DNA of 64,000 nt from a bacterium (GTDB lineage Bacteria > UBA10199 > 2-02-FULL-44-16 > JAAZCA01), in NCBI GenBank assembly GCA_041648665.1, contig JBAZOP010000003.1, forward strand, positions 69,082 to 133,081. The letters are read 5' to 3'. The notes beneath the pieces are model-generated. The model had not been told where the DNA came from, made no database searches, and saw nothing but the letters and a program-made list of their open reading frames with translations. A program made the position numbers and the translations under genes. Positions within the stretch are counted from its first letter, which is position 1; every line of letters begins with the position of its first letter. This document shows positions 3,254 to 52,014 of the stretch, piece by piece.

Positions 3254-3983
3254 CGCTATGCTCCGCGTTCGGATCCGACGCGCTGAAATGCCGGATCTCG
3301 TCGTTGATCTTCGTGCAGAGCGTCTCGCCCTCGCCCATCGATCCGCGCAGCCACCGCAGGTGGACTTCTCCGTGTGTCGGATGCTTGCCCGTGACCTCTA
3401 CCCTGCCATCGGACAGCTTGCACTTCGTTGCCGGGATGCCCTGGGCGATGCACTCGCGCACGAGCCCTTCGAGCCTGTCCTGCTGGTAGGACGAACGCGG
3501 CGTTCTCGCCCTCGGCTTGGTGTCGCGCTTGCGAGGGGCGTCTGACGGCTCGACGATGTCCTCGTCATCGTCTTCGTGCACAACGAGCGGGGAGGTGTCC
3601 AGCCCGAGCGACTGCGCGCGCATGTGCAGCGAGTGCGCTTCCTCACCGTCTGCCAGCTCGCAGGCGAACACGATGAGAAGCTCCAGCAGTTCCCGGAGCG
3701 ATGTGCGCCAGGACTCCTCGATGCTGCTTCCCAGGGCCTCGAACAGCACCTCGAACTTGCGGAACTTGTCGGGGCCCATGTTCTGCTTGAGAGCCGGGCT
3801 CTGCACCGCCGTCTTGCACATCTGGATCAGCGCGACCGTGCCGCCTGCGATCATCATCGTGGCTGTGGCGCAGGCCTGGGCAGTGACGGCGACCTCCCGC
3901 GACTCCTTGTTCTCTTCGAGAACCGCGATGGCGTACGAAACGAGGCGAAGGTCGAGACTTCGGCGCAACTTGCCTTGCTGCAT
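3246..3983 (-). CDS. hypothetical protein (~245 aa)
   Basis: Protein-like translation. The track start at 4019 is TTG; an ATG at 3983 (MQQGKLRR...) follows an intergenic palindrome. Confidence 0.6.
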   Translation of the reverse strand: MQQGKLRRSLDLRLVSYAIAVLEENKESREVAVTAQACATATMMIAGGTVALIQMCKTAVQSPALKQNMGPDKFRKFEVLFEALGSSIEESWRTSLRELLELLIVFACELADGEEAHSLHMRAQSLGLDTSPLVVHEDDDEDIVEPSDAPRKRDTKPRARTPRSSYQQDRLEGLVRECIAQGIPATKCKLSDGRVEVTGKHPTHGEVHLRWLRGSMGEGETLCTKINDEIRHFSASDPNAEHSGV

Positions 3984-5858: not shown

Positions 5859-7954
5859 CACTCTTCCCTCAACACTTCCGCCAGCGTCCCCTGCTTCTCG
5901 GTCCCCATGAGCCTCGCCAGGATCTCCGCTGGCAACTGCTTGTGGTAGCGGGGCAGGATGCGCTTGGCGAGTGCGACCTCGCCGTCTGTCAGCTGCCTTC
6001 GCTTGGCGATCTCTGCGACGCGCCTGCCCATGTGAGCGTGCGCTCCGGAGAACCCCATGCCGTCCCTCTGGCGAGCCCCGTCGCACAGCGCCGAGACCGC
6101 CAGGAAGCCCGCAGAGGCCGCTCCGCGCTCTTCGTCCGTCGCCACGGGCCAGACGATCTTGGGAGGCTTCGGAGGCTCCACGGGGCCAATGCGAGCAGCC
6201 GCGGTGTGCTCCAAGGCAGCGTCCGCGATCTGTTGCTTGCGAATGACCTTGGCGAGCATTACAGCGTCCAGGCTCTCGTCCACGGCGAGATGCTGGATGA
6301 GCACGGCGTTCCGCTGGGAAATCCTATGAATGCGATCTTCTGCTTGGCTCAGGTCTCCGGGCACCCAGGAGCTTTCGACGAACGCCATGTAGTCGGCTGC
6401 GGTCAGGGTGAGCCCGACGCCCGCCGCTTGGATGCTTCCGATGAACACCCTGATTTTCGGGTCGGACTGGAAGCGGTCCACGATGGCGAGCCGATCGTTC
6501 TGCGGAGTCGGGCCGTAGACGCACACGGCTTCGCTGCCATAGTGGGCGACAAGCTGCTCGATGACCGCGTGGTGGTGCGCCATGACGACGATCTTGGGCC
6601 GCTCCTCCAGGACGAGATCGAGATGCTCGAACACGGACGGGAGCTTCGCCAGGGCGAGCTTTTGCCGCTCCACCGAGATCGTCTTGAAGTCGATGTCCGC
6701 AATGGTCTGGCAGAGCCGGTCGAGCGCCATCTCGTACGCGACCGTGTCCCCGCCCGCTTCGGCCAAGTCCACCTCGGCAGCGAGCACATCGATCTGCCCG
6801 CTCTGCTTCGTCCATGCGGCGTGCTCCGCCTTGACCGCGGCAGACGCGCCCGTGGGCGGGAGGAACACGATTTGTCTGGTTTTCTTCGGCAAAAAGGGCA
6901 AAACGTCGGACTTTGCGCGTCGGATCATTACCGTCGATCTCATGCGTTCTTGCAGTTCTTCGAGGCGGCTCGCGCCGTCCGTGTGCCACACCTCGCGCGT
7001 GAATCCGCCTCGGACTCGGATGGTCTCCTTCACAGCGCCGCAGTAGCGCATCAGGAACGGCCATTCCAGGTTCCAGGTGACCGGGTCCAGGGCGTGCAGC
7101 AGCGGCCATAGCTCCTTCGGGCGGTTGGGCAGCGGCGTGCCCGTCAGGAACAGCGCGCGCTTGGCTTGGTTGATCAGTCCAAGCTGGGCAGGCTCCGCGG
7201 GTCTGCCTCGCTTCTTGTCCTCGCGTTTGCCCTTCTTGCCCAGGATGACTTCGCTCCGTTGTGCGGTGCCCGTCTTCATGCGGTGAGCTTCGTCCACGAT
7301 GAGAAGGCCCCAGGTCCGAGCCATCAGCGCTGCGCGGAGCTGGGCTGCACGCGGGCCGACAAGCCGCTCGTAGTTGACGATGACGAGATCGTTGCGAGGA
7401 TGCGGAGGATCGTTCGACTCCACAACGTGGATGAGCCGTGGGCGCACGAGCCACTTCTCTGCCTCGCGCTTCCACAACAGGCGCAGGCTTGCCGGGCAGA
7501 TGACGAGGATGCTGCCCATGTTGGGCACGGCATTGGCGACTCCGAGCGCCTCCACGGTTTTGCCAGTGCCACAAGAATCCGCCAGCAGCACATTCCTGCG
7601 CGCCAGCGCGTACTCGACGGCGGCAAGTTGGTACGGGTAGTATTCGCACCCGGGCGGCGCAGGCACTTCGAGCTTGCTGTCCGCGGCCTTGCTCGCCTCG
7701 ACGGTGCGGTAGTGATCCGCCAGCGAGTAGATCGCGGACTCGGCGAGGTACTTCTCCGCTCGGGAGGCCACCGTCTTGTCGGCGGTGAACCAGATGCGCG
7801 GCTCCATGTGAGCCTTGCAGGCTTCGCAGGCGTGGTAGCAGCGCTCGTCGCCGAAGTGGAAGTGGAAGCCCAGGCTCTTGAGATACTCGCGCGCGGGAAC
7901 GTCGTCGAAACGAATCTGCGCGTAGTAGATGCCGTGGCTGAACTCGATCTTCAT
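5858..7954 (-). CDS. SNF2/RAD54-family DNA helicase
   Basis: Motifs GTGKT (Walker A) and IVDEAH (DEAH box); C-terminal helicase domain. Start trimmed to MKIEFSHGIYY (the track start at 8053 adds an R-rich extension). Confidence 0.85.
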   Translation of the reverse strand: MKIEFSHGIYYAQIRFDDVPAREYLKSLGFHFHFGDERCYHACEACKAHMEPRIWFTADKTVASRAEKYLAESAIYSLADHYRTVEASKAADSKLEVPAPPGCEYYPYQLAAVEYALARRNVLLADSCGTGKTVEALGVANAVPNMGSILVICPASLRLLWKREAEKWLVRPRLIHVVESNDPPHPRNDLVIVNYERLVGPRAAQLRAALMARTWGLLIVDEAHRMKTGTAQRSEVILGKKGKREDKKRGRPAEPAQLGLINQAKRALFLTGTPLPNRPKELWPLLHALDPVTWNLEWPFLMRYCGAVKETIRVRGGFTREVWHTDGASRLEELQERMRSTVMIRRAKSDVLPFLPKKTRQIVFLPPTGASAAVKAEHAAWTKQSGQIDVLAAEVDLAEAGGDTVAYEMALDRLCQTIADIDFKTISVERQKLALAKLPSVFEHLDLVLEERPKIVVMAHHHAVIEQLVAHYGSEAVCVYGPTPQNDRLAIVDRFQSDPKIRVFIGSIQAAGVGLTLTAADYMAFVESSWVPGDLSQAEDRIHRISQRNAVLIQHLAVDESLDAVMLAKVIRKQQIADAALEHTAAARIGPVEPPKPPKIVWPVATDEERGAASAGFLAVSALCDGARQRDGMGFSGAHAHMGRRVAEIAKRRQLTDGEVALAKRILPRYHKQLPAEILARLMGTEKQGTLAEVLREE

Positions 7955-11960: not shown

Positions 11961-12713
11961 TCAGTCCCTCGTCTCCTCCGCAGAGTGCGTCATCGCCCTT
12001 CGCGCAACGATGACTCGCTCACCGTGCCCAGGCAGACGAATCGGCGGGTGCGTGGCGTGCTCAATGGCCCCTGGCCCCAGGCGCACGACATGCCCCGAAG
12101 GCAAGTTCGGCATCTTCGGCCCAAGGCCTCGAATGACCGCGATGTCACCCTGGCGTCGCACGATCTGGTTGGAGCACGACCGCCAGATCCAGTCGATGGC
12201 AGAGCGTACAGAGGCGAGCCCGGACGGTACCGCATGGGCGAAGAACGTCCCGCTCTCGTTGCGGCCCACCACGAACCGACTGCTCGTCTCCTTCGGGTAC
12301 CACTTGGAGGACTTGGCGTAGACCCGCTTGCGCGTGACCTCGATGAGAGCGAGCCCCGCGTGGCCTGAGTCGCAGTACGGCACCTGAGCCGCCAGCCCCG
12401 GGCCCACATAGTCGACCACGTTCGTGCTGCGGTAGTCGCCCCGTGTCGAACCATGCTCGTCGAAGTACAGCTGAGCCATGCGGGCGAGCCCGCGCCCCTG
12501 CCGCTGCATCTTCTGCGCCTCCCATCCGGACGCAGTCGGCGCGTACGGTTCGGCGAGGCCCAGCAGAGCCACGATGGCAACGTGCCGGGCGTTGACGAAC
12601 ATGCGTTTGGAAGGAGCCCCGCGCTTGCCAGCGATGGCTCGCTCCGCGGCCTTCTCCAGCTGGTCAAGCTGCGTCGTCTTGTCGTAGCTTCGGATGGCCT
12701 GTTTGAGGCTCAC
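11961..12713 (-). CDS. hypothetical protein (~250 aa)
   Basis: Track ORF 11961..13343 trimmed to a GTG at 12711-12713 that overlaps the ParB stop (GTGA). Confidence 0.5.
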   Translation of the reverse strand: MSLKQAIRSYDKTTQLDQLEKAAERAIAGKRGAPSKRMFVNARHVAIVALLGLAEPYAPTASGWEAQKMQRQGRGLARMAQLYFDEHGSTRGDYRSTNVVDYVGPGLAAQVPYCDSGHAGLALIEVTRKRVYAKSSKWYPKETSSRFVVGRNESGTFFAHAVPSGLASVRSAIDWIWRSCSNQIVRRQGDIAVIRGLGPKMPNLPSGHVVRLGPGAIEHATHPPIRLPGHGERVIVARRAMTHSAEETRD

Positions 12714-13594
12714 TTGCCGCTCTCCGTATCGATGCAGGCGTCCAGGGCCTTGTCGTCTCCGAACATCCATCGCATGGCCGCGAGGACTCCCTTGCCCATG
12801 GGCGAAAGGGTCTTCTCGCGCGCCGCCAGCGCTTCCATCTGCGGGGCCACTGCCTTGGCAGGGCGCAGCCGGAACTTGGGAGCCTTGCGCTTGCGCCCGC
12901 GGCCTCCCCTGGCTTCCTTCGCTTCCTTCGCCGCCTTGGGCGACCTCACGCTCAGGAGCCCCGCCGCCTCGAACTCCAGGATCTTGGCGTCCTGCTCGGC
13001 CTCGGGCAGCGTGGACAGGTCTCGGGCCACGCTCACGGCTAGCCGTTCCTGCTCCAGGAGCTTCTGCACGACGGCGCTGCACGACAGCAGCATCAGGGCG
13101 CTGCGCATGCCCCTGGCGTCGAAACCGAACCGAATCCTGGCCTGCTTCTCGTCGTGCCCCGCGTCGAGGTACCGGCGCAGCTTGAGCGCTTCGACCATGG
13201 GCGTGTCGTCCGTTCGGATTGAGTTGCGGGTGATCATGTAGCCCATGCTCTCCTCGCCGTTCGCGCGGCGGGAGGTGGCGGGCACCAGCCAGTGTTTGTC
13301 GCTGCCAGCTTCCTTCAGGCGACGGTTGGCCTCGATGCAGCACCGCACCCTCTGCCGTCCGTCGATGACCTCGACGATGGGGTTGCCGTGCTTGTCCTCG
13401 CCGTTCTTCCGGACCATGACCGGATCGAGCACGCCGTCTGCCATGATGGACAACACCAGCGATTCGTCCAGCGGGAGGTGAACCCGCTCGTCGTACAGCG
13501 GGTGACTCTTGTCCGTGACAATCGTCAGCGCCTCGGGTTCGTAGTTGTATCCGTTCAGGCGCGCTACCGCGCCGAACTCTTCCGCTCTGCTCAT
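12710..13594 (-). CDS. ParB-like nuclease (ParB/Srx) domain protein
   Basis: N-terminal ParB-like domain (LTIVTDKSHPLYDERVH...IEVIDGRQRVRCCIEA) with a basic C-terminal tail. Confidence 0.8.
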   Translation of the reverse strand: MSRAEEFGAVARLNGYNYEPEALTIVTDKSHPLYDERVHLPLDESLVLSIMADGVLDPVMVRKNGEDKHGNPIVEVIDGRQRVRCCIEANRRLKEAGSDKHWLVPATSRRANGEESMGYMITRNSIRTDDTPMVEALKLRRYLDAGHDEKQARIRFGFDARGMRSALMLLSCSAVVQKLLEQERLAVSVARDLSTLPEAEQDAKILEFEAAGLLSVRSPKAAKEAKEARGGRGRKRKAPKFRLRPAKAVAPQMEALAAREKTLSPMGKGVLAAMRWMFGDDKALDACIDTESGK

Positions 13595-18249: not shown

Positions 18250-18311
18250 TGACTTGCTCCTGCTTGTGGCGGGATGATTCCCGCAACGGTGCCGCCGGGT
18301 GGCGGCTGTGC
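18250..18311 (-). repeat. intercistronic SAS + two-hairpin element #1
   Basis: Plus strand reads cattgacttgctcctgcttg, then hairpin gcgggatgattcccgc and hairpin gccgccgggtggcggc. Confidence 0.8.
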
Positions 18312-18620
18312 TCAGCGGAAGAACTTCGCCTTCGGGTACATCGCCAGCACCTGATTTCTGGCGTCCTCCCGACTCTTGGCTCGCAGCGTACCGTCGATCG
18401 TGCAGTCGTCGTTGGCAAACCAGTAGATCGGCGTGCCAAACCCGAAGTACGTGCCGTTTTCGTCGTAGGCACCGTCTGCACTCATGCGCACCTTGCGCAG
18501 CGTGATCTTGCCCGAGAAGGTAGGAGGCCCCTCCCATGTTCCGCGGCCCATTGCTGCGCCGCGTTTGGGGTCTCCGCACCATCCCTTGGGGTCGTGCGTC
18601 TTGTAGCTCGGTCTCGACAT
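18312..18620 (-). CDS. hypothetical protein (102 aa)
   Basis: ORF track entry; starts at an SAS. Confidence 0.55.
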   Translation of the reverse strand: MSRPSYKTHDPKGWCGDPKRGAAMGRGTWEGPPTFSGKITLRKVRMSADGAYDENGTYFGFGTPIYWFANDDCTIDGTLRAKSREDARNQVLAMYPKAKFFR

Positions 18621-18686
18621 GACTTGCTCCTGCGTTGTGGGGCATCGTAGCCCCGTTGGTGCCGCAGGCGAACCTGCGGCTTCGGT
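18621..18686 (-). repeat. SAS + two-hairpin element #2
   Basis: SAS variant catgacttgctcctgcgttg; hairpins ggggcatcgtagcccc and gccgcaggcgaacctgcggc. Confidence 0.75.
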
Positions 18687-19088
18687 TCAGATGTCCCTGG
18701 CGGGAAGGTCTGCGATCACGTAGTCGGCCATGCGGTCGTCACCGATGACGCCCGCTACGCGACGGATCGCTCGGATTGTTGCCTCCTCATCGGGCTTGCC
18801 ATGCGTAGCCCCGTTCGCAGGCGGGATGAGGTATCCAGCCTGCGAACCGCGCCAGCCAGCGGGGACGCCCCTCGGTCCGCTCTCCAGCATGCCGTAGACG
18901 AGCCTGCGCCCGTCTCCGGGCTGCCGCACCTTGATCCACCAAACGCGATTGGCTTGGCACTCGTGCTCACCATTGTAGTCGTGAGCGCTCGCGATCACAG
19001 GCCAATCCTTGGCGACGATACGCACAGGGTTTTCGTCCGAAAGCGCGACGACGATCTTCTTTTCCGTGGTGGTGGTCTTTTCTGACAT
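18687..19088 (-). CDS. hypothetical protein (133 aa)
   Basis: ORF track entry; starts at an SAS. Confidence 0.55.
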   Translation of the reverse strand: MSEKTTTTEKKIVVALSDENPVRIVAKDWPVIASAHDYNGEHECQANRVWWIKVRQPGDGRRLVYGMLESGPRGVPAGWRGSQAGYLIPPANGATHGKPDEEATIRAIRRVAGVIGDDRMADYVIADLPARDI

Positions 19089-19153
19089 GACGTACTCCTG
19101 CTTTAGCGTGGCTTGATTGCCACGGTAGTGCCTGGGCCATCCCAGGCTGCTAG
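19089..19153 (-). repeat. SAS + two-hairpin element #3
   Basis: SAS variant catgacgtactcctgcttt; hairpins gtggcttgattgccac and cctgggccatcccagg. Confidence 0.7.
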
Positions 19154-19360
19154 CTACTCCACCTCGGTGTAGACGGTGCGTTTTGTCGCCAGCACCATCG
19201 GCTCACCGCAGCACGTGAACACGTGGTCCTTGGGAGCGTCCCAGTAGTCCCCTGCGTTCGCGCTGTTTTCCGCACCGCACACATTACAGAGAAGGAAGGG
19301 GTGCGGGCCGGGCACACCGATCTGGTTCTTCAGATCCGCGACTGTGACTTTGTTGCTCAT
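19154..19360 (-). CDS. small Cys-rich protein (68 aa)
   Basis: CNVCG...CCGEP motifs; starts at an SAS. Confidence 0.5.
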   Translation of the reverse strand: MSNKVTVADLKNQIGVPGPHPFLLCNVCGAENSANAGDYWDAPKDHVFTCCGEPMVLATKRTVYTEVE

Positions 19361-19435
19361 TGACTTGCTCCTGCTACTCGCGGCGACATTGCCGCAATGG
19401 TGCTACCCGGCCACGACGGGGCTGGTAGCGGTAGG
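19361..19435 (-). repeat. SAS + hairpin element #4
   Basis: cattgacttgctcctgctact; hairpin gcggcgacattgccgc; a second imperfect stem gctacc...ggtagc. Confidence 0.75.
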
Positions 19436-19846
19436 TCAGCGGTGGAACTCCTCGAAGGGGCAGCGTCCGCTGGGAACGGGAGTGTAGCCTGTGCTCACGG
19501 CATCGTCCCAGGTGAGCCCGCAGGTGCCGCACGTCATGGGATCCTTGGCTTCGTCCCCGGGCTTGACCGGCTGCACCGGGAAGTCTGGAGGGACCACCAC
19601 GGTGTGTGTGGCGGGCACTGGCTCTTCGTCCATCTCATCCACGACGGAGATGTCTCGCCCGTCGTTGTCGGTCGGGTAGCTCGGGTAGCAGCGCCCGTTG
19701 AGCGTCTTGCCCCACGTAGTGGGAACGTCGAAGCCCTCTTCGTTCTCGTCCATGAGATCGTTGGCGAGCTTCATCGCCTGCTCTTCTGTCTCGGCTGCCA
19801 CGTCGAAACAGAGCCATGCCTTGGCTTGGCATCGGTATGTTTTCAC
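19436..19846 (-). CDS. hypothetical acidic protein (136 aa)
   Basis: GTG start; C-terminal CGTCG zinc-ribbon-like motif. Confidence 0.55.
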   Translation of the reverse strand: MKTYRCQAKAWLCFDVAAETEEQAMKLANDLMDENEEGFDVPTTWGKTLNGRCYPSYPTDNDGRDISVVDEMDEEPVPATHTVVVPPDFPVQPVKPGDEAKDPMTCGTCGLTWDDAVSTGYTPVPSGRCPFEEFHR

Positions 19847-19906
19847 GTTGTTGCTCCTGCTTTGTGCGGGTCTCCCCGCGTTGGTGCCGCCGTGTGGCGG
19901 CTCGAC
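19847..19906 (-). repeat. SAS + two-hairpin element #5
   Basis: SAS variant cacgttgttgctcctgcttt; the hairpin module gcgggtctccccgc...gccgccgtgtggcggc is identical to that of element #6. Confidence 0.75.
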
Positions 19907-20134
19907 TCATGCCCCTTGCACTCGCTTGGCGAAGTCCTTGAGCGCTTCCTCGTACTTGCTGAAGTAGTGCCCCCACACGTACTCGCTGTGCTCCATTTCG
20001 TGGGTGAGCACTTCGACGTGCGTGACGTACGGCTCGATGCCGTTGCCGATCTTGCGCAGCACGACGCGCGAAGGAAGTTGCTGCCCCTTGATACCGGGAC
20101 TTATGGGGCCTTCGGCCAGATGCCTTTGTTCCAT
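19907..20134 (-). CDS. hypothetical protein (75 aa)
   Basis: ORF track entry; starts at an SAS. Confidence 0.5.
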   Translation of the reverse strand: MEQRHLAEGPISPGIKGQQLPSRVVLRKIGNGIEPYVTHVEVLTHEMEHSEYVWGHYFSKYEEALKDFAKRVQGA

Positions 20135-20196
20135 GACGATTGCTCCTGCTTGGTGCGGGTCTCCCCGCGTTGGTGCCGCCGTGTGGCGGCTGGCAG
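20135..20196 (-). repeat. SAS + two-hairpin element #6
   Basis: catgacgattgctcctgcttg plus the same ~39-nt two-hairpin module as element #5. Confidence 0.75.
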
Positions 20197-21060
20197 CTAC
20201 GCTGCCGCGCTGTTGAGGTGCCCGGGTAGCATCCCCGCAGCGAAGCCCAGGCGGCGGTAGATGTACGCCGTGAGGAGCTTGGTGAGCCGCTCGCGTCCGT
20301 ACTTCGCCCAGTACCCATCCGCTGCCACGCCCTGTTCCCAGAGCGCGTGCAGCACGCTGTGAACCGGCCTCGGCATGTGCCCAGGCCCGCCAGCTTCGTT
20401 GATCGCGTTCATCAGCATGCTGGGCACGTAGTAGGGTTCCTCCATGTGGCCCAGGATGTGGCTCTTGGGGTCACCGTCGAGCACGGGCTTGCCGCTCTTG
20501 TCCTTCATGAGGCAGGCCCAGCAGTCCGCACCCGAAGGCTTGGGAACCTTCAGAGCGAACAGCGCGTCCATGTAGTCGGAGACGAACTTGCGAGCCCGCT
20601 TCTTGAGCTTGATGTCGCTCCGGGTCTTCTTGTCAGTCGCCAGCGGCGCACCCTTGACCTTGCCGGATTCCGTGACGGTCATGCCGTCCGTGAACACGTA
20701 GGCCTTGCCAGGAGACGCCCAGGGGTATTCCCCCGGCTTGTACATCTTGACGTACCAGATCCCGGCATCCGTGTAGATGGCGAGCCCTGCGGGCATCAGC
20801 GCGTTCAGACGACCCTTTGTCGTGGCCGTCTTGAAGCCGCATGACGAGATGATCATGCCGCCCGACTTGCGGAACACGGCGATCTTGCTGCCGAACAAGT
20901 GCAACTCGATGTTGCCCGCGTTCAGGCAGACCGACGTGTTCTCGCTCAGCTTGCGAGTCGTGACCGGCTTGCCGCGACTCATCAGCAGTGTCCCGCCGAT
21001 GACGCGGAAGAAGGTCTCGCCTCGCTTGTACTTCCTTCCTCCGAAATTCAACTTGTCCAT
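20197..21060 (-). CDS. hypothetical protein (~287 aa)
   Basis: Track ORF trimmed to MDKLNFGGRKY..., directly after an SAS (upstream residues ...SPSRSKV are the SAS translation). Confidence 0.6.
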   Translation of the reverse strand: MDKLNFGGRKYKRGETFFRVIGGTLLMSRGKPVTTRKLSENTSVCLNAGNIELHLFGSKIAVFRKSGGMIISSCGFKTATTKGRLNALMPAGLAIYTDAGIWYVKMYKPGEYPWASPGKAYVFTDGMTVTESGKVKGAPLATDKKTRSDIKLKKRARKFVSDYMDALFALKVPKPSGADCWACLMKDKSGKPVLDGDPKSHILGHMEEPYYVPSMLMNAINEAGGPGHMPRPVHSVLHALWEQGVAADGYWAKYGRERLTKLLTAYIYRRLGFAAGMLPGHLNSAAA

Positions 21061-21140
21061 GACTTTGCTCCTGCTTGGTGAGGGGACATCCCCTCGTTGG
21101 TGCCAGCCTAACCATGAACGGTCAGGTGGCAAGAGGCGGG
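21061..21140 (-). repeat. SAS + hairpin element #7 with embedded promoter-like motif
   Basis: catgactttgctcctgcttg; hairpin gaggggacatcccctc; then, on the minus strand, TTGCCA-N16-TAGGCT (plus ~21103-21141). Confidence 0.7.
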
Positions 21141-21141
21141 T
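21103..21141 (-). promoter_or_regulatory. sigma70-like promoter-like motif (TTGCCA...ATGGTTAGGCT)
   Basis: Related to the copy at ~24852-24891 (shared cctaaccat...ggtggcaag.g.ggcg) and to the 34-bp promoter repeat through the ATGGTTA core. Confidence 0.45.
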
Positions 21142-21806
21142 CAGTCGCGAGCCCAGCAACCGGGCAGCGTGACCGTTTCGGGCAGGGACTTCAGGAAGGC
21201 GATCACGTCCTCCGGGACTTCCTCGTACAGCCATTGGCTGCCGTACTTGTATCCACACTCCGGGCACGGCTTGTTCAGCAAGCCCTTGGGATGCTCTTCT
21301 GGGCGCACCCATCCCGTGGCCTTGGTTTCCCTCTTGTGTACCCGGTAAAAGGAAACGTCCAAAGGATGAAGCGTGCTCAAGGGCAGTGACAGAAGGAACC
21401 GCTGTCGCTCTGTCACGGCGGTCGAGCCGTTCTTGACCAGCTCCGCGACGCCGGATTCCACCAGATTGTTCCGCGCAGTGTAATGCTCAGTCTTGAGCAT
21501 GTACTCGATCACTTCTACCTTTTCGGTCACATCCCAATCCTTGCGCTGGTGCTCGCAACCGGCTCGCATGTCGTTCAGGTGCCAGCGGTTCCACACCTCT
21601 GCCAGCTTGGCGACATCAATCCCCGGGAACGGCTGGGTGACGTTGACCAGATCGATCTGACCGCAGCCACCCTTCGCATCACCATTACTCAGCGGTCCTT
21701 CAACGCCGGTCAGAGAGAGGCGCTTTCCGTCCCACTTGATGGTCACGAAGACCTTGCCGCAGTCACCTGTGCCCACCAGCACATGCTTTGTGAATGGTTC
21801 GATCAT
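21141..21806 (-). CDS. hypothetical protein (~221 aa)
   Basis: Trimmed to MIEPFTKHVLVG... after an SAS; contains a CPECG motif. Confidence 0.6.
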   Translation of the reverse strand: MIEPFTKHVLVGTGDCGKVFVTIKWDGKRLSLTGVEGPLSNGDAKGGCGQIDLVNVTQPFPGIDVAKLAEVWNRWHLNDMRAGCEHQRKDWDVTEKVEVIEYMLKTEHYTARNNLVESGVAELVKNGSTAVTERQRFLLSLPLSTLHPLDVSFYRVHKRETKATGWVRPEEHPKGLLNKPCPECGYKYGSQWLYEEVPEDVIAFLKSLPETVTLPGCWARD

Positions 21807-21876
21807 TGACTTGCTCCTGCTTGTGGCGGGATGATTCCCGCAACGGTGAGCACGCCGGGGAGGCGCGCTCGTAAGG
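21807..21876 (-). repeat. SAS + hairpin element #8
   Basis: cattgacttgctcctgcttgtggcgggatgattcccgcaacggtg, a ~45-nt stretch identical to element #1. Confidence 0.8.
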
Positions 21877-22386
21877 TCAAACGGCTGCGCGCTCGCTGCG
21901 AAGCTCATTGACCAGCGCTCGACGGTGAAGATCGGCTTTGTAGTACCGATCACAGTTGTACGTGTTCAGCATGGCTTCGCGGATCCGGTACCACGCTTGC
22001 TCTTCGCTGGCCTCGGAGCGACCCTGCCACGTCCGCTCGACTTCAGGAATCGGCGTGACGTAGGCGTTGACGATCGCCCAGTTGTCTTCTGGCCTGCCGT
22101 TGAACGAGATCGCGGGCGCGAGGCCGAATCCGCAGCCGGGTGCGCCGAGCGATCCCATGGTCTCACACGTGTCAGCGTCCAGGCCGCACTGCTCGACGAA
22201 CTTGTCGAACTGCTTGCGGGTGAGGATGGCGCAATACTTGCGATGCTTCCCGTGAGGGAATACCTCGCTGTAGTCCGCGCTCTCATCGCCCTCTGTGCAT
22301 TGCCACTGCCGAATGCACGGTGGCCTGTACTCCGAGACGCTAGCTCCGCGCGCTATGTCAAACGAGTAGATGACTGAGAACTTCAT
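21877..22386 (-). CDS. hypothetical protein (169 aa)
   Basis: ORF track entry; starts at an SAS. Confidence 0.55.
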   Translation of the reverse strand: MKFSVIYSFDIARGASVSEYRPPCIRQWQCTEGDESADYSEVFPHGKHRKYCAILTRKQFDKFVEQCGLDADTCETMGSLGAPGCGFGLAPAISFNGRPEDNWAIVNAYVTPIPEVERTWQGRSEASEEQAWYRIREAMLNTYNCDRYYKADLHRRALVNELRSERAAV

Positions 22387-22457
22387 TGTGACTTGCTCCT
22401 GCTTGTGCGTGGCACCATGCCACGTTGGCGCGTGCGCTTGCGGCGCACGCTTGGATG
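22387..22457 (-). repeat. SAS + two-hairpin element #9
   Basis: cattgtgacttgctcctgcttg; hairpins cgtggcaccatgccacg and gcgtgcgcttgcggcgcacgc. Confidence 0.75.
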
Positions 22458-22880
22458 CTACGGAAGCAGCATCGCGCAGATGTACAGGTAGCCGTAGCTC
22501 GCGTTCGGAGTCGCCACGAGGCGAACGCCGTTCTCTTCGATCTCAATCAGATCGCGACTGTCAGGGCTCACGTACTTGCTCGCCACGCGCTTGTGCAGCT
22601 TGTCCAGCAGCCCGGAGTCCCCGTTGAGCCTCTTCTGAAGATCCGGCCACCGGGACTGGTCGCCATCGGCCCCTTGCCGATTCGGCACGAGGTCCACGGA
22701 CTGAACCAGCTTCTTGTCCTCGATGATGCGCGTGCGCCCGCCGACACGTTTGCGAATGCGCTGCGTTTGGTAGCTCGACTGAAGGATCGCTCGCGCGCCC
22801 CAGGCGACTGCGCAGTCACGGTCAACGAGCCAGCCGCACCATGCGGGCTTGGGCCTGCTTGCGTTCTTCTCTTCTTCCAT
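22458..22880 (-). CDS. hypothetical protein (~140 aa)
   Basis: Trimmed to MEEEKNASRPKP... after an SAS. Confidence 0.55.
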   Translation of the reverse strand: MEEEKNASRPKPAWCGWLVDRDCAVAWGARAILQSSYQTQRIRKRVGGRTRIIEDKKLVQSVDLVPNRQGADGDQSRWPDLQKRLNGDSGLLDKLHKRVASKYVSPDSRDLIEIEENGVRLVATPNASYGYLYICAMLLP

Positions 22881-22957
22881 TGACTTTGCTCCTGCTTGTG
22901 GTGCGGGCACCATACCCGCCCTAGTGCCTCGCCGCTTCCTCACGGCGAGGCAGGCTT
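22881..22957 (-). repeat. SAS + two-hairpin element #10
   Basis: cattgactttgctcctgcttg; hairpins gcgggcaccatacccgc and gcctcgccgcttcctcacggcgaggc. Confidence 0.75.
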
Positions 22958-23335
22958 CTACTTGCTCCCTTCTCCCTGGCCGACATGTGCCCGCAAGCGC
23001 AGGAGCGTCCACCCTGCGGACTTGCGGCCTGAGTATCGGCGACCATCGATCATGGTCGCAAAGCACTGCACCACGACGGGGCAGTACGCGCCCGGAGGGT
23101 GAATGCGGTAGCGCCCAGTCAGAGCCAGCGGCGCAATGATCTTGTCGCCAGCCCAGTTCTTGAGCACAAACCGCCCGCCCTCCTCGCAGACGTGGCCGAT
23201 GACCACGCCTTGGGTATGATCCACAACCGGGCCGATAGAGGAGAACTGCGTCCCGTTGTGTTCAACGAAACCGATCTCCACCTGCGCTCCGGTCGCGGTC
23301 ACACCGCTTTCGGAATGAAAGGTTGTCTTGTCCAT
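22958..23335 (-). CDS. hypothetical protein (~125 aa)
   Basis: Trimmed to MDKTTFHSESG... after an SAS. Confidence 0.55.
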   Translation of the reverse strand: MDKTTFHSESGVTATGAQVEIGFVEHNGTQFSSIGPVVDHTQGVVIGHVCEEGGRFVLKNWAGDKIIAPLALTGRYRIHPPGAYCPVVVQCFATMIDGRRYSGRKSAGWTLLRLRAHVGQGEGSK

Positions 23336-23410
23336 TCGACTTGCTCCTGCTTGTGCGTGGCACCATGCCACGTTAGCGCCATCGTAGCGAGCTGGCTAGA
23401 TGGCGGGCGG
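23336..23410 (-). repeat. SAS + hairpin element #11
   Basis: cattcgacttgctcctgcttg; hairpin cgtggcaccatgccacg, identical to the hairpin of element #9. Confidence 0.75.
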
Positions 23411-23545
23411 TCAAATCTCCGTGTATGCCACAGACACTTGACGCCCCGGGTATTTTGCCTGGGCCTTCCTCTCCGCGTCGTTGTGCGACTTGGCTCTGAT
23501 CATTCCCACCTCTTCCCCGTCCACGTATACGATATATACCTTCAT
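23411..23545 (-). CDS. small protein (~44 aa), not in the ORF track
   Basis: An SAS-adjacent ATG followed by MKVYIVYVDGEEVGMIRAKSHNDAERKAQAKYPGRQVSVAYTEI; below the track's length cutoff. Confidence 0.4.
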   Translation of the reverse strand: MKVYIVYVDGEEVGMIRAKSHNDAERKAQAKYPGRQVSVAYTEI

Positions 23546-23641
23546 TCGACTTTTGCTCCTGCTATGGTGCGGGACCATGCCCGCCCTGGTGCATGCGCGC
23601 GCGAACGCGCATGCGAGGGATTGTGCTGCTGTGGTGGGATA
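23546..23641 (-). repeat. SAS + two-hairpin element #12
   Basis: SAS variant cattcgacttttgctcctgctatg; hairpin gcgggaccatgcccgc; palindrome gcatgcgcgcgcgaacgcgcatgc. Confidence 0.7.
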
Positions 23642-24802
23642 CTAGGCGGCGAGCGCTTGGGAGAAAATCTTGCCCGCGAACCGTTCCAGGTCGAGCACGT
23701 CGTCGCCGATCTGCGCCGAGCGTGCCTTGCGGGGCGCACCAGCGAGTGCCTTCGCCTCGATGTCCTGGCTGAGAGCCGACACGGCCTGCGCCGCATCGAG
23801 CCAGGAGATGCCCTTGCCGAGCGTGTGAGGCACGCGCGGGTCGGCGCTCTGCACCATTTCGACGACGCGCTTCGCCATGTCCTGGGAGACCTGACCCTTG
23901 AGGATCGTGTTCAAGCGGTCCACGGTCAGTTCCTTCTCACCCGCCGCGTTCAGCGAGTCGAACATCGACTGCCGCCGCTCGGGCAGAAGGAACTGCGATG
24001 TGCTGTCCTTGATCATGCTGATGGTGGCCTCGTGGTCGAGCTTGCGCGTGTCTTGCGACCAGTCCACGTCACGGTCGAGCCGCTGCCCGAGATGCACGCG
24101 GCGGAAGATCCGCTCAGTCGTCATCCCGTTCATGCAGGCCAACCGCAGGAAGAACGCCGTGATGCCCGCTGCCGTGCCGCCCCAGTCCGAATTGCGATAC
24201 TCGATTCCCAGGACGTAGGGGTCGCCGCCGACCATCTGCACCTGCGGAATGACCATCTTGATCGCGAACTGGAGATCCGTGCCGGTCGCTGAGAACGGGA
24301 CCGCGCCCGACTTGTCAGAGACTTCCAGCACGGTTTCGAGCAAGGGGCGGGTGTCGATCGTGTTGTAGCTGGCGGAGAGAACCGCCATGCCCAGTTCCAC
24401 GTCGGGCTTCTTGCGCGCGCGCACGAGGTGAGCCGGGGGCCTGCCGTCCTTGCCGACAAGGTGCGCCCAGTCCGTGTTCAGCACGTTCTGCAAGAGGTCG
24501 CGCGCCCAGTCCGTGTCAGCGTCCAGGCAGGCGTTCGCGAAGTTCGCGTTCACTACCTGACCGATGCCGTACACGTGGCTGAGAGCGTGGTCGTGCAGCA
24601 CGAGCGTATCGTGCTTGTCGAGCACCATCTGGACGTTGTTGTCCTGCGTGACCGCGAACTCCACAAGCTCCGCGGGCGCTTTGCGGTCCACCGGCATCTC
24701 GCTGAACACGCGCGCGACTTGCGCCTTCGCGTTCGGGAGGTTCCGATGGATCACTTCGTCCAGGCGTGCCGCCGCCTGTTCTGCCGAAACATTCTGCATC
24801 AT
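23642..24802 (-). CDS. hypothetical protein (386 aa), possibly a phage/plasmid DUF932-like family
   Basis: Largest protein in the SAS block; the family assignment is tentative. Confidence 0.6.
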   Translation of the reverse strand: MMQNVSAEQAAARLDEVIHRNLPNAKAQVARVFSEMPVDRKAPAELVEFAVTQDNNVQMVLDKHDTLVLHDHALSHVYGIGQVVNANFANACLDADTDWARDLLQNVLNTDWAHLVGKDGRPPAHLVRARKKPDVELGMAVLSASYNTIDTRPLLETVLEVSDKSGAVPFSATGTDLQFAIKMVIPQVQMVGGDPYVLGIEYRNSDWGGTAAGITAFFLRLACMNGMTTERIFRRVHLGQRLDRDVDWSQDTRKLDHEATISMIKDSTSQFLLPERRQSMFDSLNAAGEKELTVDRLNTILKGQVSQDMAKRVVEMVQSADPRVPHTLGKGISWLDAAQAVSALSQDIEAKALAGAPRKARSAQIGDDVLDLERFAGKIFSQALAA

Positions 24803-24904
24803 TTGACTTGCTCCTGCTTTAGTCGGGCCGCGACATGCGACCCGCTTGGTGCCATCCTAACCATTGCTGGCCGGGTGGCAAGGGAGGGCGTGACAGGCAA
24901 TGTC
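24803..24904 (-). repeat. SAS + hairpin element #13 with embedded promoter-like motif
   Basis: catttgacttgctcctgcttt; hairpin cgggccgcgacatgcgacccg; then the TTGCCA-N16-TAGGAT motif on the minus strand. Confidence 0.7.
24852..24891 (-). promoter_or_regulatory. sigma70-like promoter-like motif (TTGCCA...ATGGTTAGGAT)
   Basis: Same family as the copy at ~21103-21141. Confidence 0.45.
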
Positions 24905-25288
24905 CTAGTCCACGATCTCAGTGAGCGAGCACTGGAAAATCTCGTGGATGTAGTCCTTGATCTCGCGGCGGTCGCGTCCGGTGATGCGCAGGACGATTCC
25001 GTGCACGAGCGAAGCCTTGACGATCACGGTGTGCTCGGTCCAGCCATCGTACATGCCAACATCGTTCATGTGGTGGTAGCTGGTATGGATCACCAGCTTC
25101 TCGCCAGTGGACGCATCGAAGTCGAACGTGCATCCGTTGTCGAACCCGGAGCCGTGCGGCAACCTGTTCAGAACGAGCTGCTCAATCGTCTCGCGGTGCT
25201 TGACTCGCCATTCCGCATTGCCCTTCTCGGCACAACGCGCGTAGGCGTCAACGGATGACGCCAGCCTCTTGTAAACTGGCTCTTTCAT
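24905..25288 (-). CDS. hypothetical protein (~127 aa)
   Basis: Trimmed to MKEPVYKRLASS... after an SAS. Confidence 0.55.
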   Translation of the reverse strand: MKEPVYKRLASSVDAYARCAEKGNAEWRVKHRETIEQLVLNRLPHGSGFDNGCTFDFDASTGEKLVIHTSYHHMNDVGMYDGWTEHTVIVKASLVHGIVLRITGRDRREIKDYIHEIFQCSLTEIVD

Positions 25289-25363
25289 TGACTTGTGCTC
25301 CTGCTTTGTGCGGCGGGATTGCCGCATCAGTGCGCGTACCCGTGCGGGCGTACGCGCGTGGGG
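25289..25363 (-). repeat. SAS + two-hairpin element #14
   Basis: SAS variant cattgacttgtgctcctgcttt; hairpin gcggcgggattgccgc; long stem gcgcgtacccgtgcgggcgtacgcgc. Confidence 0.75.
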
Positions 25364-25660
25364 TCAACCGACCCGCTTGGACGCGCCAGCGGTTTCCATC
25401 TCCGCCACCAGTGCGCGCACCGCAGCGTCGCCACCCTTGTCGCTGTAGACGTGGTGCGGACGCCCGATGCGCCCCTCGAAGTCCCACCCTTCGTAGCCGT
25501 CGCGGCGCGCGAAATCGATCCGCGTTCCGTCTGCGCGTTCCAGGTAGAACTCTCCGAAGCCCATGTGATGCAGGGTTCCGAAGCGGTTGCAAGCGTTCAG
25601 GAAGTCGGAATCCCCGACAACCTTCTCGCTTCCATCAATCTGCTTGATCGTGTGAGGCAT
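25364..25660 (-). CDS. hypothetical protein (~98 aa)
   Basis: Trimmed to MPHTIKQIDGSEK... after an SAS. Confidence 0.5.
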   Translation of the reverse strand: MPHTIKQIDGSEKVVGDSDFLNACNRFGTLHHMGFGEFYLERADGTRIDFARRDGYEGWDFEGRIGRPHHVYSDKGGDAAVRALVAEMETAGASKRVG

Positions 25661-25731
25661 TGACTTGTGCTCCTGCTTTGAGAGGCGGCACCATACCGCC
25701 TTCAGTGCGTACGCGGGCGCGTACGCGAGGC
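25661..25731 (-). repeat. SAS + two-hairpin element #15
   Basis: cattgacttgtgctcctgcttt; hairpins ggcggcaccataccgcc and gcgtacgcgggcgcgtacgc. Confidence 0.75.
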
Positions 25732-26079
25732 TCAGTCCTCTGCGGTCTCTGGACGGGAGAACGGAAGCTGGTGACAGCCGCAACCGTGCGGGCAGCACCA
25801 TGCTTCCTTGAAGTCGTTTGTGCAGTTTCGGAGGCGTTCCGCTAGCTCGTAGATTTTGTTCGCCAGGGTTTCGTTGCACAAGCAATCGGCCCCGCAGAGC
25901 GCACGCTGGTAGCGGCGTTCGTCAAAATCAGTCCGAGCGTTCCACCTCGGATGGAAGTAGCCACCGGAGCTTGCTTTCCATTCCGCGTACACCACAAGCA
26001 ACCACTCGCGCGGCTGATCGTGAATGTTCTCGTACAGGTCAGCGTATGCCTCCGGTGCGTGAGACCATTCGCATGTCAT
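25732..26079 (-). CDS. Cys-rich protein (115 aa)
   Basis: CGADCLCNE and CCPHGCGCH clusters; starts at an SAS. Confidence 0.55.
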   Translation of the reverse strand: MTCEWSHAPEAYADLYENIHDQPREWLLVVYAEWKASSGGYFHPRWNARTDFDERRYQRALCGADCLCNETLANKIYELAERLRNCTNDFKEAWCCPHGCGCHQLPFSRPETAED

Positions 26080-26200
26080 GGTTTGCTCCTGCGCTGTGCT
26101 GACGGAATTGTCAGCGGTCGGTACCCGGGAATCGAACCCGGATCTCGCGGCACCAGTTACGGTGTCGCGTGACAGCTTGCTCCTAGGCGCGTCAAACGCA
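26080..26200 (-). repeat. SAS + three-hairpin element #16, including a tRNA T-arm-like hairpin
   Basis: SAS variant catggtttgctcctgcgctg; hairpin gctgacggaattgtcagc; hairpin ccgggaatcgaacccgg, which on the minus strand reads CCGGG-TTCGATT-CCCGG (a T-stem/T-loop); hairpin cgcggcaccagttacggtgtcgcg; then a degenerate SAS, cttgctcctagg. Confidence 0.6.
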
Positions 26201-27370
26201 CCATGCCCGGCGGTCAGATGCCCCGTCAGGCCTTTTGGCTATACCGATTTTGAGGTTGCTGGCGACAGGTTGACTATTGTCGCCAGAGAGCCCCTGCCCA
26301 CGTCTTAGCGTGAGCGGCAGGAGCAGGAGCGGGATCTACTTCCCCCACCACGCTGGTATGCCCAGTCACGGGCGCGTGATGGTTTCGGAACCTGCCTGGA
26401 AGCCGTACGGTCAAAAGCCCCGGGCTATCATGCGGCAGGCTCGCGCAGCTTGGAGCAGCGCGACGATCCAAAATGTCATCCCCGTTGAATTCGATTCACG
26501 TTGCCGGTTCACCTCAGTAGCAGCGGTCCGATTTGGCATGCGTCCCCATGGACAGCCGCGGACTTGCTTGCCCCCCGTCAAAGACAAGGGGCTGAGTTTA
26601 CCCGGTACGCGGGATAGTAGCTCTAGCCGGAACGGAATCTCTCCCGTGGCCCGCGGGTATCAGCCGCAGCGCCCTGCGCGTAGGACGGCTCAGGCGATCT
26701 GAGGGACGGAGCCCAGAGGCGCAGTCACGCCGCACGGTACGCCGTGCGGTTAGGCGAGCACCGCTTGTCCGTTCGCTTGTCGGTTCCGCTTGCTAGTCTT
26801 GCTTCAGGCGTTCACGGATCCAGGAGTCCACGCGAGACCTTGAGCCTTACCGAGCCGCCAAAAGCGACCCCTATACGCGCCGGTCCGAACGGAAACCTGC
26901 CCGGTTCCCTGGTGAGGGGAGGACTTGCGCGCCCCAAATGCTGGCGCAGCAGCGGTCACATGGGCCGGGTAGACCCGTGGCAGCCATCCGCTCGACTAGC
27001 GCGCGTTGCCGCGTCGCAATCGGGGCAGATGTTGCCCTATTGCTTGCAGGGTACGCCCCGCAAGGCTGGCGTGGTCCGGTCAAGGGCACCGGCTAGGCTC
27101 ACCCCACAACAGGCAGGCTCGCCAGGGGAGCCGCCCCGCCAACCGGGGCCGCGCTCCACCCTGTTGTTGTCCTGCACCCCACCCCCTCCCCTCCTATACG
27201 TGGCGATAGTGTTTCGCTATCAGCGCGTACAGGGGGTACATCGTGGCGATAGTGCACTGGTATAGTGTATCGTATTGCAGCGTCACGCGGTGTATTGTGA
27301 GGTGGTGTGATGTATCGCTGGAGCTTGCTGTCCAGCTTGGGAACGGAGCGCGCAGGGAGCGCGTGCGACG
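26201..27370. other. ~1.2 kb non-coding hub (candidate regulatory/ori region or ncRNA)
   Basis: Only R-rich junk ORFs are present. Contains a 9-bp-stem palindrome (ctggcgaca...tgtcgccag, ~26262-26290), CGCTTG x3 repeats (~26770-26800) and AT-richer iteron-like repeats (cgtggcgatagtg x2, GTGTAT x3, ATAGTG x3) at ~27190-27320. Confidence 0.5.
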
Positions 27371-49863: not shown

Positions 49864-50082
49864 GTGAGAAGGACGAGGCTTGAGATCGCCGTCCAGCAGT
49901 TCGAGCAGATCGCGAAGCGCATCCAGATCGAGAACAGCGACACCGGAACCACAGCGTACGGCATCCGGATCGACCGGGGCCTGCTCTCGGTGCGCGTGTT
50001 CGTGAACGGCGAGCTTCGCGAGGTGATTGACCTACCAACCAGGGACGAGTACCCTACGATGTCGTACGGGAACCGCGTCTGA
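49864..50082 (+). CDS. small hypothetical protein (start uncertain, GTG/TTG)
   Basis: Only the tail of ORF 49567..50082 is protein-like. Confidence 0.3.
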   Translation: MRRTRLEIAVQQFEQIAKRIQIENSDTGTTAYGIRIDRGLLSVRVFVNGELREVIDLPTRDEYPTMSYGNRV

Positions 50083-50110
50083 CCCCACTCGCTGATAAGG
50101 AGCTGGCAAC

Positions 50111-50740: not shown

Positions 50741-51218
50741 TCGCCTCGAAGAATGAGTCGAGACCTTCGATGCGGTTGTCCACGATGACGTAGGACTTCC
50801 TACCGTTCTCGATCATCCACTCCCCGAACAGCACCTTGTACGCGTCGTGCGAGAAGCGCCAGCAGTCGGTCGGATACGCATGGTACCCCCATGCCCAGGC
50901 GGCGCTGATGCACAGTAGCCCACTCGGGCGAAGCACGCGATCCATCTCAAGCACGAGCTTCCATGGCATAGAGACGTGTTCCAGGCTGTTCGCTGAAACC
51001 ACTGCATCCACGCTTGCGTCGGCCAGCGGGATCTTGAATGGTTCCTTCTCGACGATGTCTACGTTCGGACCTTTCTCGATGTCGAACCCGATGTACTTCG
51101 GGCCAAACAGCCCGCGCAGGTTCCCATTTACGTCGTAGGCTCCAACATCCAGGACCACCGCATGCTTCGGCACCTTCTTCGCGAACTCCGCTAGTCTATT
51201 GTAGCTCTGTGCGTGCAT
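50730..51218 (-). CDS. SAM-dependent methyltransferase (Methyltransf_11-like)
   Basis: VLDVGAYDVNG and VDAVVSANSLEHV motifs. Confidence 0.7.
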   Translation of the reverse strand: MHAQSYNRLAEFAKKVPKHAVVLDVGAYDVNGNLRGLFGPKYIGFDIEKGPNVDIVEKEPFKIPLADASVDAVVSANSLEHVSMPWKLVLEMDRVLRPSGLLCISAAWAWGYHAYPTDCWRFSHDAYKVLFGEWMIENGRKSYVIVDNRIEGLDSFFEAIKP

Positions 51219-52011: not shown

Positions 52012-52014
52012 GAT

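Follow-up and report, generated by a model that had tools for sequence, protein, structure and literature searches.

Phage early operator regions with repeated repressor sites are known from lambda (OL/OR) and from mycobacteriophage L5 (stoperators), and GOLLD and ROOL are large ornate phage-associated RNAs, both in Rfam, that often lie next to transfer RNAs (tRNAs). Bacterial ribonuclease P (RNase P) cleaves hairpins that consist only of an acceptor stem, a T stem and a T loop, and it also cleaves phage RNAs and operon messenger RNAs (mRNAs), its natural non-tRNA substrates being phage M3 RNA, P1/P7 C4 RNA and operon mRNAs (PMC11143913). In plant mitochondria, mRNA ends are formed by tRNA-like t-elements (PMC1920247). 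Here, the gene-free interval at 26080-27370 of a 64,000-nt stretch of contig JBAZOP010000003.1 (GenBank assembly GCA_041648665.1; the whole stretch is referred to as the window) was compared with these systems. The interval is the largest gap of the 64-kb window, its sequence is unique within the window, and, as an original prediction made from the letters had stated, it stands at the head of a leftward gene array, here of ~17 short genes (26.1 to 18.2 kb). A plausible but tentative reading is that it forms the transcribed control and leader region of this array, with RNA cutting at a tRNA-like element. New here are the acceptor-like stem of that element and a family of T-arm elements in intergenic gaps, which in a related array occur together with twister ribozymes.

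tRNA-like element of the window

The interval lies between the stop of a 150-aa gene (27371) and the ATG of a 115-aa gene (26079). Three consecutive minus-strand hairpins were located at its left end as predicted (26169-26146, 26143-26123, and 26115-26098). The middle one, extendable to 7 bp, contains a canonical T arm with a 5-bp stem, the G53-C61 pair, and a loop of the form U54-U55-C56-R57-A58-N-Y. It had been stated that no acceptor stem could be formed, but UCGGUAU (26247-26241, minus strand) pairs with GUACCGA (26124-26118) directly after the T stem, and this 7-bp closing stem is present in both the minimum-free-energy and the centroid fold.

The closest comparison is a metagenome contig of the Joint Genome Institute (L008), which encodes a 74% homologue of a 386-aa protein of the window and has the same layout, with homologues of only two window proteins. 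Its closing stem is formed by UCAAUGC (6136-6142) and GCAUUGG (6207-6213) in the centroid fold, and an acceptor-like helix coaxial with a T stem-loop, as in RNase P minihelices, is found in both sequences. The T arm is CCGGG/CCCGG with the loop UUCGAUU in the window and GGCAG/CUGCC with the loop UUCGACU in L008; all T-stem pairs except G53-C61 differ between the two, with pairing retained. Both sequences also share the order that leads from the body of the interval to the T arm, namely AGGAGCAAG(G)CUGUC, a hairpin with conserved flanks (CG-A-CACCUC / GAGGUG-C-CG in L008), and the T arm itself. The AGGAGCAAG motif has counterparts in L008 (AGGAGCAAGG) and in a further relative, L026 (GGAGCAAGG), each upstream of a hairpin and a T arm.

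As one of the readings in the original prediction had it, the T-arm hairpin mimics a tRNA without being an intact one. ARAGORN found 0 tRNA and 0 transfer-messenger RNA (tmRNA) genes in the whole window, and the Rfam tRNA model had no match in the window or L008 even at an expectation value (E) of 10. The element is 130 nt long and the hairpin beside the T arm has a 6-nt loop, neither of which fits a canonical cloverleaf. A tmRNA was also negative with ARAGORN and Rfam, and a G3-U70 pair is absent. At gathering scores Rfam gave no match for the interval, and at E up to 10 its only match was mascRNA-menRNA (RF01684) at 26120-26154 (15.4 bits and E 8.8, with a threshold of 42.5 bits). The T arm matches phage tRNAs only at query positions 15-42, that is, in the T arm and not in the acceptor 3' strand. 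The GGTTCGANTCC site occurs once in the window, and because 11% of shuffles also have one, this single site is not significant alone; its significance comes from the relatives.

T-arm elements and twister ribozymes in relatives

Homologues of the 115-aa protein led to four relatives (L026, L027, L029, and L030). The window, L008, L026, and L027 were scanned for GTTCGANYC, that is, the loop and closing pair, with no stem requirement. Of 22 hits, 13 were coding and 9 intergenic. The coding sites have only 1-3 complementary flanking bases, and eight of the nine intergenic sites have 4-7-bp stems, all eight on the gene strand. Up to three T-arm elements occur per relative. Among seven T-arm copies from four elements, G53, U54, U55, C56, G57, A58, and C61 are invariant and the stems differ, and the 12 pairs of the acceptor and T helix are 94% paired over the seven copies with both-side changes at 11 pairs. 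Because the 5' strands were chosen and the hairpin scan that first found the T-arm copies was biased to stems (at least 5 bp required), the independent evidence is the GTTCGANYC scan together with the comparison of the window and L008. Stems of 7 bp lie directly beside the T stem in the window, L008, L026, and three L027 copies.

The L027 copies (1326-1368, 2168-2212, and 3060-3104, plus strand) are near-identical mini tRNA-like elements of 45-48 nt that follow stop codons at a short distance. Their sequence is GGCGCGC-UA-C-UGGUC(UC)-GCGGG-UUCGAYU-CCCGC-CGCGCGC-N-CCA, where UGGUC is variable-loop-like, and corresponds to a tRNA minus the D and anticodon arms; a 3' NCCA (U/C-CCA) was found only in these copies. 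They match the 3' halves of phage tRNAs (e.g., tRNA-TERM of Sinorhizobium phages and a tRNA-Ser) in 561 records, 396 of them from Mycobacterium phages. The T-arm element of L026 is 142 nt long and is closed by GCUGCGC/GCGCAGC. ARAGORN found 0 tRNA genes in L008, L026, and L027. The T-arm elements are tRNA-derived in origin and are not intact tRNAs. Separately, a degenerate full-size tRNA-like sequence was noticed in a 291-nt intergenic gap of L026 (6530-6610, plus strand). It is not among the called tRNAs; its D-arm-like part is GUCUGGUAGAC, its anticodon-like loop is ACUUAUAG (8 nt), and the stem of its T arm has 4 bp.

Three Twister-P5 ribozymes are present in L026 (7146-7199, 8352-8403, and 9419-9471, plus strand), with scores of 56.5, 50.9, and 49.4 bits against an Rfam threshold of 37.6. 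Each lies in an intergenic gap just upstream of a ribosome-binding site, in a unidirectional small-gene array that also has T-arm elements. Known self-cleaving ribozymes (twister, hammerhead, pistol, hatchet, and hepatitis delta virus-like) were searched for in the window and L008, and none was found at E up to 10. The notion that a twister sits in the orthologous slot of L026 was dropped, as the 379-aa protein there is not homologous to the 386-aa protein of the window. Since RNA cleavage is the known activity of both tRNA-like minihelices and twister ribozymes, a role in RNA processing is favored. The recurrence of the T arm and the L026 twisters point to RNA processing over an integration scar.

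Two-hairpin modules of the array

A two-hairpin module precedes every window gene from 26.1 to 18.2 kb. It consists of hairpin A ending in GC, a linker R-C-Y-N-N-N, hairpin B with a loop that is mostly AAUNNC, ACNAAGCAGGAGCAA, 4-6 nt, and the ATG. The copies were compared using a covariance model of hairpin B and the ribosome-binding site in place of a MAFFT alignment, which was not structure-aware. In the window the model found 17 copies, confined to 18255-26115 and to the minus strand, and in L008 it found eight, each downstream of the corresponding interval. Pairing in hairpin B reaches 98.5%, and two of its five pairs show compensatory changes. Hairpin A is followed by RCC in 16 of 28 modules and by RCCA in 9 of 28. 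The hairpin at 26115-26098 is itself the first of the 17 copies, with the T-arm hairpin filling its hairpin A slot, and the ACCGAC that follows the T-arm hairpin matches the module linker. No Rfam family matches the module, which may serve as a signal for protein binding or processing. Pseudoknot pairing of the hairpin B loop with its flanks was discarded, no consistent covariation being seen on inspection of the module alignment, and sigma-54 and sigma-70 readings of the linker were discarded because the required spacing was not fitted.

Conserved head block

At the opposite end of the interval, the head block aligns to L008 5081-5245 with 72% identity over 166 nt and 85% over a 95-nt core, and its upstream half also aligns to L032, a 649-nt contig in which the upstream 150-aa gene has a homologue (56%). 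Between the window and L008, the protein genes that flank the block are unrelated. Five of the six frames of the interval give peptides that match L008 only inside the block (L008 5060-5241), and because so many frames match there, the conservation is at the nucleotide level.

On the gene strand, the block reads GTGACG-N16-TATACC-AGTG, CACTATCGCCACG, N30, CACTATCGCCACG-TATAGG, and a G-rich run. The N30 spacer holds TGATAGCG, whose TGATAG arm forms a dyad with the start of the second repeat. In L008 the G-run, the dyad, and both 13-mers (13/13 and 12/13) with their 43-nt spacing are retained. The distance between TGACG and ATACCAG is 17 nt in the window and L008; in L032, the second element is ACACCAG. 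Upstream of the core each lineage has short repeats of its own, which are ATACAC-like in the window, ATGACGT in L008, and ACGTGAC in L032. The repeated sequence that had been noticed in the AT-richer part of the block is CGTGGCGATAGTG, found at 27199 and 27242 and nowhere else in the window. The predicted three copies of ATAGTG were also located in the head region (of seven in the whole window), while GTGTAT, likewise predicted three times, is exact only twice (27265 and 27290). The AT-richer character was borne out, with 52.7% GC at 27190-27320 and 64.7% in the remainder of the interval.

Repeated and dyad sites conserved among relatives at the head of an operon are what an operator would show, and the modules and array genes follow the block only on its downstream side. 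From its geometry, the block is most likely an operator/promoter, that is, a protein-binding control region. Judged by conservation and repeat geometry, it probably binds at least one DNA-binding protein and holds a promoter. A T7-type promoter was considered because AATACGATACACTATA resembles the T7 consensus, and was rejected because L008 does not share the resemblance and no RNA polymerase of the single-subunit type is encoded. The CTATCGCCACGAT sequence resembles TCGCCA, box B of P1 parS, which is at most a possible lead. Directly after the second repeat, a G-rich run (GGAGGGGAGGGGGTGGGGTGCAGG, 27169-27192, minus strand) is conserved in L008 as GGGGGGTGGGGTGCAG, and it may be a G-quadruplex or part of the initial transcribed sequence.

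Leader body and coding status

The interval is non-coding. As predicted, no credible open reading frame (ORF) was found. The GC frame plot shows no codon periodicity, with a max-min spread of 0.02-0.15 compared with 0.2-0.5 in the flanking genes, and neither Pfam nor PHROG gave a significant match to any of the six longest internal ORFs; one of 65 aa has three PHROG matches at E 0.008-0.08, the only matches among the six. In the six-frame comparison with relatives, matches were confined to the head block and no protein remnants were found in the leader body. A hidden gene, which would have overturned the prediction, was ruled out by the frame plot, the family searches, and the six-frame comparison. 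Also rejected was the possibility that the 115-aa gene extends N-terminally across the T arm. The frame in question is open in the window and L008, and both translations have F-D-S. Against it, the window lacks a start codon there (ATG, GTG, or TTG), the frame is placed differently in the two sequences with respect to the conserved motif upstream, and the hairpin stems show compensating changes.

The leader body is 921 nt in the window and 890 nt in L008. No similarity beyond chance was found between its sequence and L008, L027, or L026, and it holds no Rfam family. In the window, the gene strand folds with a z-score of -4.6, compared with -1.5 for the opposite strand (only 20 shuffles). The gene strand of the L008 body holds seven GNRA-tetraloop hairpins and the opposite strand none; shuffles averaged 0.63, and 0 of 300 reached seven (P < 0.004). 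The window body has only two (P = 0.15). What is maintained in the body is its length and probably its RNA folding, not its sequence.

The 9-bp-stem palindrome and the three CGCTTG copies that had been described were located in the body (the latter at 26762, 26774, and 26787). Conservation of the predicted repeats in relatives thus divides, with the head-block repeats kept in L008 and neither the palindrome nor the CGCTTG repeats having a counterpart there. A tandem repeat was not found in the L008 interval, nor was a T-run after the palindrome on either strand. The palindrome and the 12-nt tandem repeat were given no weight. A motif GG(G/U)CUUU(U)GAC occurs in all three gene-free head regions with marginal statistics (E = 0.12), at 26385-26420 (minus strand) in the window, 5879-5913 and 6024-6044 in L008, and ~195-215 in L027, and it is twice a hairpin loop in L008.

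Genomic setting and database searches

The window has a GC content of ~62%, and nearly all genes at 3-45 kb run leftward. Besides a tyrosine integrase/recombinase of 645 aa (1352-3286), which lies 23 kb from the interval at the distal end of the array, and a ParB-like gene at 12710-13594, the recognizable proteins include an SNF2 helicase, a Dam methylase, an RRXRR/HNH protein, a MazG-like hydrolase, and a TnpB-like protein; most of the remaining proteins have no recognizable family or match phage families only. The TnpB/Cas12f-like protein has 553 aa (HTH_OrfB_IS605 and a Cas12f1-like TNB domain) and is encoded at 56243-57904 on the minus strand. At 50000-55300, GC falls to 56-59% and sugar-modification-like genes occur (a CmcI-type methyltransferase and a UDP-glucose dehydrogenase fragment); this region may be a different module or host DNA.

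The window belongs to a metagenome-assembled contig of 134 kb, and an identical copy of the sequence was found in Logan SRR8542065. Phage and plasmid collections held no DNA match to the element, and a scan of GTDB genomes with the 386-aa protein and its alignment returned nothing. IMG/VR held only relatives of 45% and 29%, both without the interval, and DNA-pattern scans of IMG/VR for the head block and for the AGGAGCAAG-hairpin motif returned nothing; five IMG/VR loci that match the repeat pair were rejected as unrelated coding repeats. Distant relatives of the 386-aa protein adjoin genes for tail-fiber-like proteins and DnaB, two of them in IMG/VR contigs, and the element is called phage-like on these grounds. 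A 76% relative, which belongs to the ENA contigs of ERZ1426555, ERZ1426734, and ERZ1426824 and was compared by its gene map, has a 1.68-kb interval without a forward gene at the same position, and L027 has at least 0.9 kb without a called gene at its contig start. That contig begins inside its own gene-free head region, and L032 (531-649, plus strand, corresponding to ~27340-27250, minus strand, of the window) ends exactly at the first CACTATCGCCACG repeat. These contig ends could be assembly breaks at repeats or physical genome ends.

Table 1 Features of the interval and their positions in the window
Feature	Position	Strand	Description
Hairpin B (GCUGAC-AAUUCC-GUCAGC) and ribosome-binding site of the first gene	26084..26115	-	Model R1, 22.9 bits, E 4.5e-4
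tRNA-like element	26118..26247	-	7-bp acceptor-like stem encloses internal hairpins and abuts T arm; 130 nt
T arm (CCGGG-UUCGAUU-CCCGG)	26125..26141	-	Canonical loop
Hairpin (CGCG-A-CACC / GGUG-C-CGCG)	26146..26169	-	4 nt upstream of T arm; 8 bp and an A/C mismatch
Single-stranded AGGAGCAAG motif	26176..26184	-	Ribosome-binding-site-like, without start codon
Leader body	26248..27168	-	921 nt, GC-rich, non-coding, sequence not conserved
Palindrome	26259-26286		9-bp arms, 10-nt loop; lineage-specific, no L008 counterpart
12-nt tandem repeat	26761-26792		Tandem Repeats Finder period 12, 2.5 copies, CGCTTG core; lineage-specific
Conserved head block	27169..27334	-	Likely operator/promoter region of the leftward array
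Two 13-nt direct repeats (CACTATCGCCACG)	27199..27254	-	43 nt apart
Imperfect dyad (TGATAG-N7-CTATCG)	27222-27204		Inverted half-site

Discussion

Under the reading proposed here, the head block (27334-27169) would be bound by protein and would probably hold a promoter, from which transcription would run leftward through the ~0.9-kb GC-rich leader. Such read-through is possible because no terminator-like site was found inside the interval on either strand. The leader would end in the acceptor-like stem stacked on the canonical T arm (26247-26118), where host tRNA-processing enzymes would cut, with RNase P acting on the 5' side and perhaps RNase Z or ribonuclease E (RNase E) on the 3' side. The cut would separate the leader from the messenger, with the first cistron beginning at hairpin B and its ribosome-binding site. 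The downstream slots would be taken by two-hairpin modules, and in relatives by mini tRNA-like helices or twister ribozymes, as alternative punctuation of a polycistronic RNA. More speculatively, and in our view somewhat unlikely as a whole, a phage-like lineage punctuates its early polycistronic transcripts with interchangeable end-forming devices (tRNA-derived minihelices read by host enzymes, twister ribozymes, and the two-hairpin module), the first mark releasing a functional structured leader RNA of ~0.9 kb.

Several observations count against the proposed reading. Neither copy of the element has a 3' RCCA, the part of a substrate that pairs with the P15 loop of RNase P RNA, the stem being followed by C-CGC in the window and C-CGG in L008, and GU-ACCGAC after the T-arm hairpin can instead be matched to the module linker (GCA-CCAAC); the missing CCA and this competing reading weaken the case for RNA processing. 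The 5' acceptor strand lies 99 nt from the T arm in the window and 44 nt in L008. Those strands were chosen for complementarity, which makes the acceptor pairing count partly circular, and a 7-bp match within 150 nt arises by chance with a probability of ~0.16 per site. At the other end, no sigma-70-like promoter passes the scan, and the best candidate -10 elements (TATACC, TACACC, or CATACC) are without the usual final T. The promoter is therefore putative. The direction and extent of transcription are inferred. In the body, the L008 fold z-score is -1.8 on the gene strand and -3.1 on the other strand, and local 200-nt z-scores are mostly near zero. The number of full interval sequences compared was two (window and L008).

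An alternative that we regard as unlikely takes the ~0.9-kb body itself as the product, a large structured non-coding RNA with its 5' end set by the promoter block and its 3' end by tRNA-like cleavage, as in MALAT1/mascRNA, and with a function of its own such as host takeover or defense evasion. Length and both ends are kept despite full sequence turnover and unrelated neighbors, the gene-strand fold stands out in the window, and the GNRA hairpins of L008 all fall on one strand; the 1.68-kb interval of the third relative and the start of L027 also agree with such a product. Known large bacterial RNAs, however, keep some conserved sequence islands, and none are shared here. The absence of an Rfam match, the local z-scores, the better fold of the opposite strand in L008, and the low GNRA count of the window body speak against it as well, and two sequences cannot give covariation. 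Quite improbable, in our judgment, is a head block that acts as a replication origin, partition, or packaging site, its repeats serving Rep, ParB, or terminase and the remainder being spacer. The layout is repeat-rich (two 13-nt repeats, the dyad, and lineage-specific upstream repeats), GC is locally lower, a ParB-like gene is present, the block is more conserved than the neighboring proteins, and the L032 contig stops at the repeats. An origin is nonetheless unlikely. The direct repeats are only two, where an iteron-type origin would have three or more at regular spacing, and a GC content of 52.7% does not make an AT-rich unwinding element. Neither a replication initiator nor a terminase gene adjoins the block, and the steady fall of cumulative GC skew continues across 26-27 kb without a turn. 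The 11-mer occurs nowhere else in the window, and the head of a unidirectional array fits a promoter better. Where the original prediction offered an operator array or origin iterons, the conserved cis element has held up, with its core shared with L008 and its upstream part reaching into L032, and the origin has not.

We give little credence to the idea that the hairpins act as single-stranded DNA, either as attC-like cassette recombination sites or as single-strand promoters of a transferred leading region. Structured repeats do lie in consecutive intergenic gaps of unidirectional small mosaic genes, the surrounding gene content is shuffled among relatives, a tyrosine recombinase is encoded in the window, and motif arrays in consecutive gaps have earlier been interpreted in this way (PMC5737381). 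That recombinase, however, has 645 aa and sits at the far end of the array instead of its head, no R'/R''-type core (GTTRRRY / RYYYAAC) is present in the aligned modules, and the relatives look like phages. The module also includes a ribosome-binding site and start codon, which ties it to translation, and the L026 twisters work as RNA. Very unlikely, finally, is that the T-arm hairpin was left behind by integration into a tRNA gene or by the decay of a phage tRNA gene, with the interval as decayed or neutral DNA. In favor of this are the tRNA-derived sequence, which matches phage tRNA genes in the T arm and, in the L027 copies, tRNA 3' halves, and the presence of an integrase in the window. 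The stem pairs have nevertheless changed with pairing kept, which argues against decay, and no protein remnants remain in the body. Of the two origins first suggested for the hairpin, the tRNA-like mimic is therefore retained and the tRNA-derived attachment remnant is not, since 23 kb separate the hairpin from the integrase, the several copies found in each relative are without exception intergenic and on the gene strand, and the tRNA match stops at the T arm.

Under the more speculative reading, bacterial viruses would have their own equivalent of mitochondrial tRNA punctuation and of MALAT1/mascRNA. Should the tRNA-like elements be cut by host RNase P or RNase Z, the phage would borrow host tRNA maturation for the processing of its own mRNA, and its relatives would solve the same problem with self-cleaving ribozymes. 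The array would then offer a concrete, testable case for the purpose of bacterial twister ribozymes. Gene-strand T-arm hairpins in intergenic gaps would also provide a search handle for RNA-processing signals in phage arrays and possibly for new ribozyme classes.

Comparison with known systems

The integron attC array differs from this locus in its GTTRRRY cores, which are lacking here, and the integrase of the window has 645 aa and is at the distal end. The head block resembles lambda OL/OR and the L5 stoperators in having short direct and inverted sites at the head of an early-type operon, conserved beyond the genes; unlike those regions, it has no repressor gene identified beside it and no consensus promoter, and a 0.9-kb leader follows. 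With GOLLD and ROOL, the locus shares a large non-coding stretch in a phage-like element that ends beside a tRNA-like fold, with a GNRA-rich copy in L008, but it has no conserved core, its two copies share no sequence, and the Rfam models GOLLD, ROOL, OLE, HEARO, and group I/II introns gave no match to the interval. The Twister-P5 ribozymes (RF02684) of L026 stand in gaps upstream of ribosome-binding sites in an array that bears T arms, whereas the window and L008 have none detected at E up to 10. Mitochondrial t-elements (PMC1920247) and the 3' elements of MALAT1 and MEN-beta (RF01684) are similar in placing a tRNA-like fold between a long RNA and the next unit as an end-forming signal; the setting here is bacterial and phage-like, the RF01684 score is far below its threshold (15.4 and 42.5 bits), and homology is not expected or claimed. 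The RNase P minihelix substrates are matched by a T arm with a canonical loop on a 6-7-bp helix within a longer transcript, and in L027 by an NCCA end; the window and L008 differ in having no CCA and in 44-99 nt of extra hairpins within the closing stem, and cleavage at this locus is suggested by analogy with those substrates.

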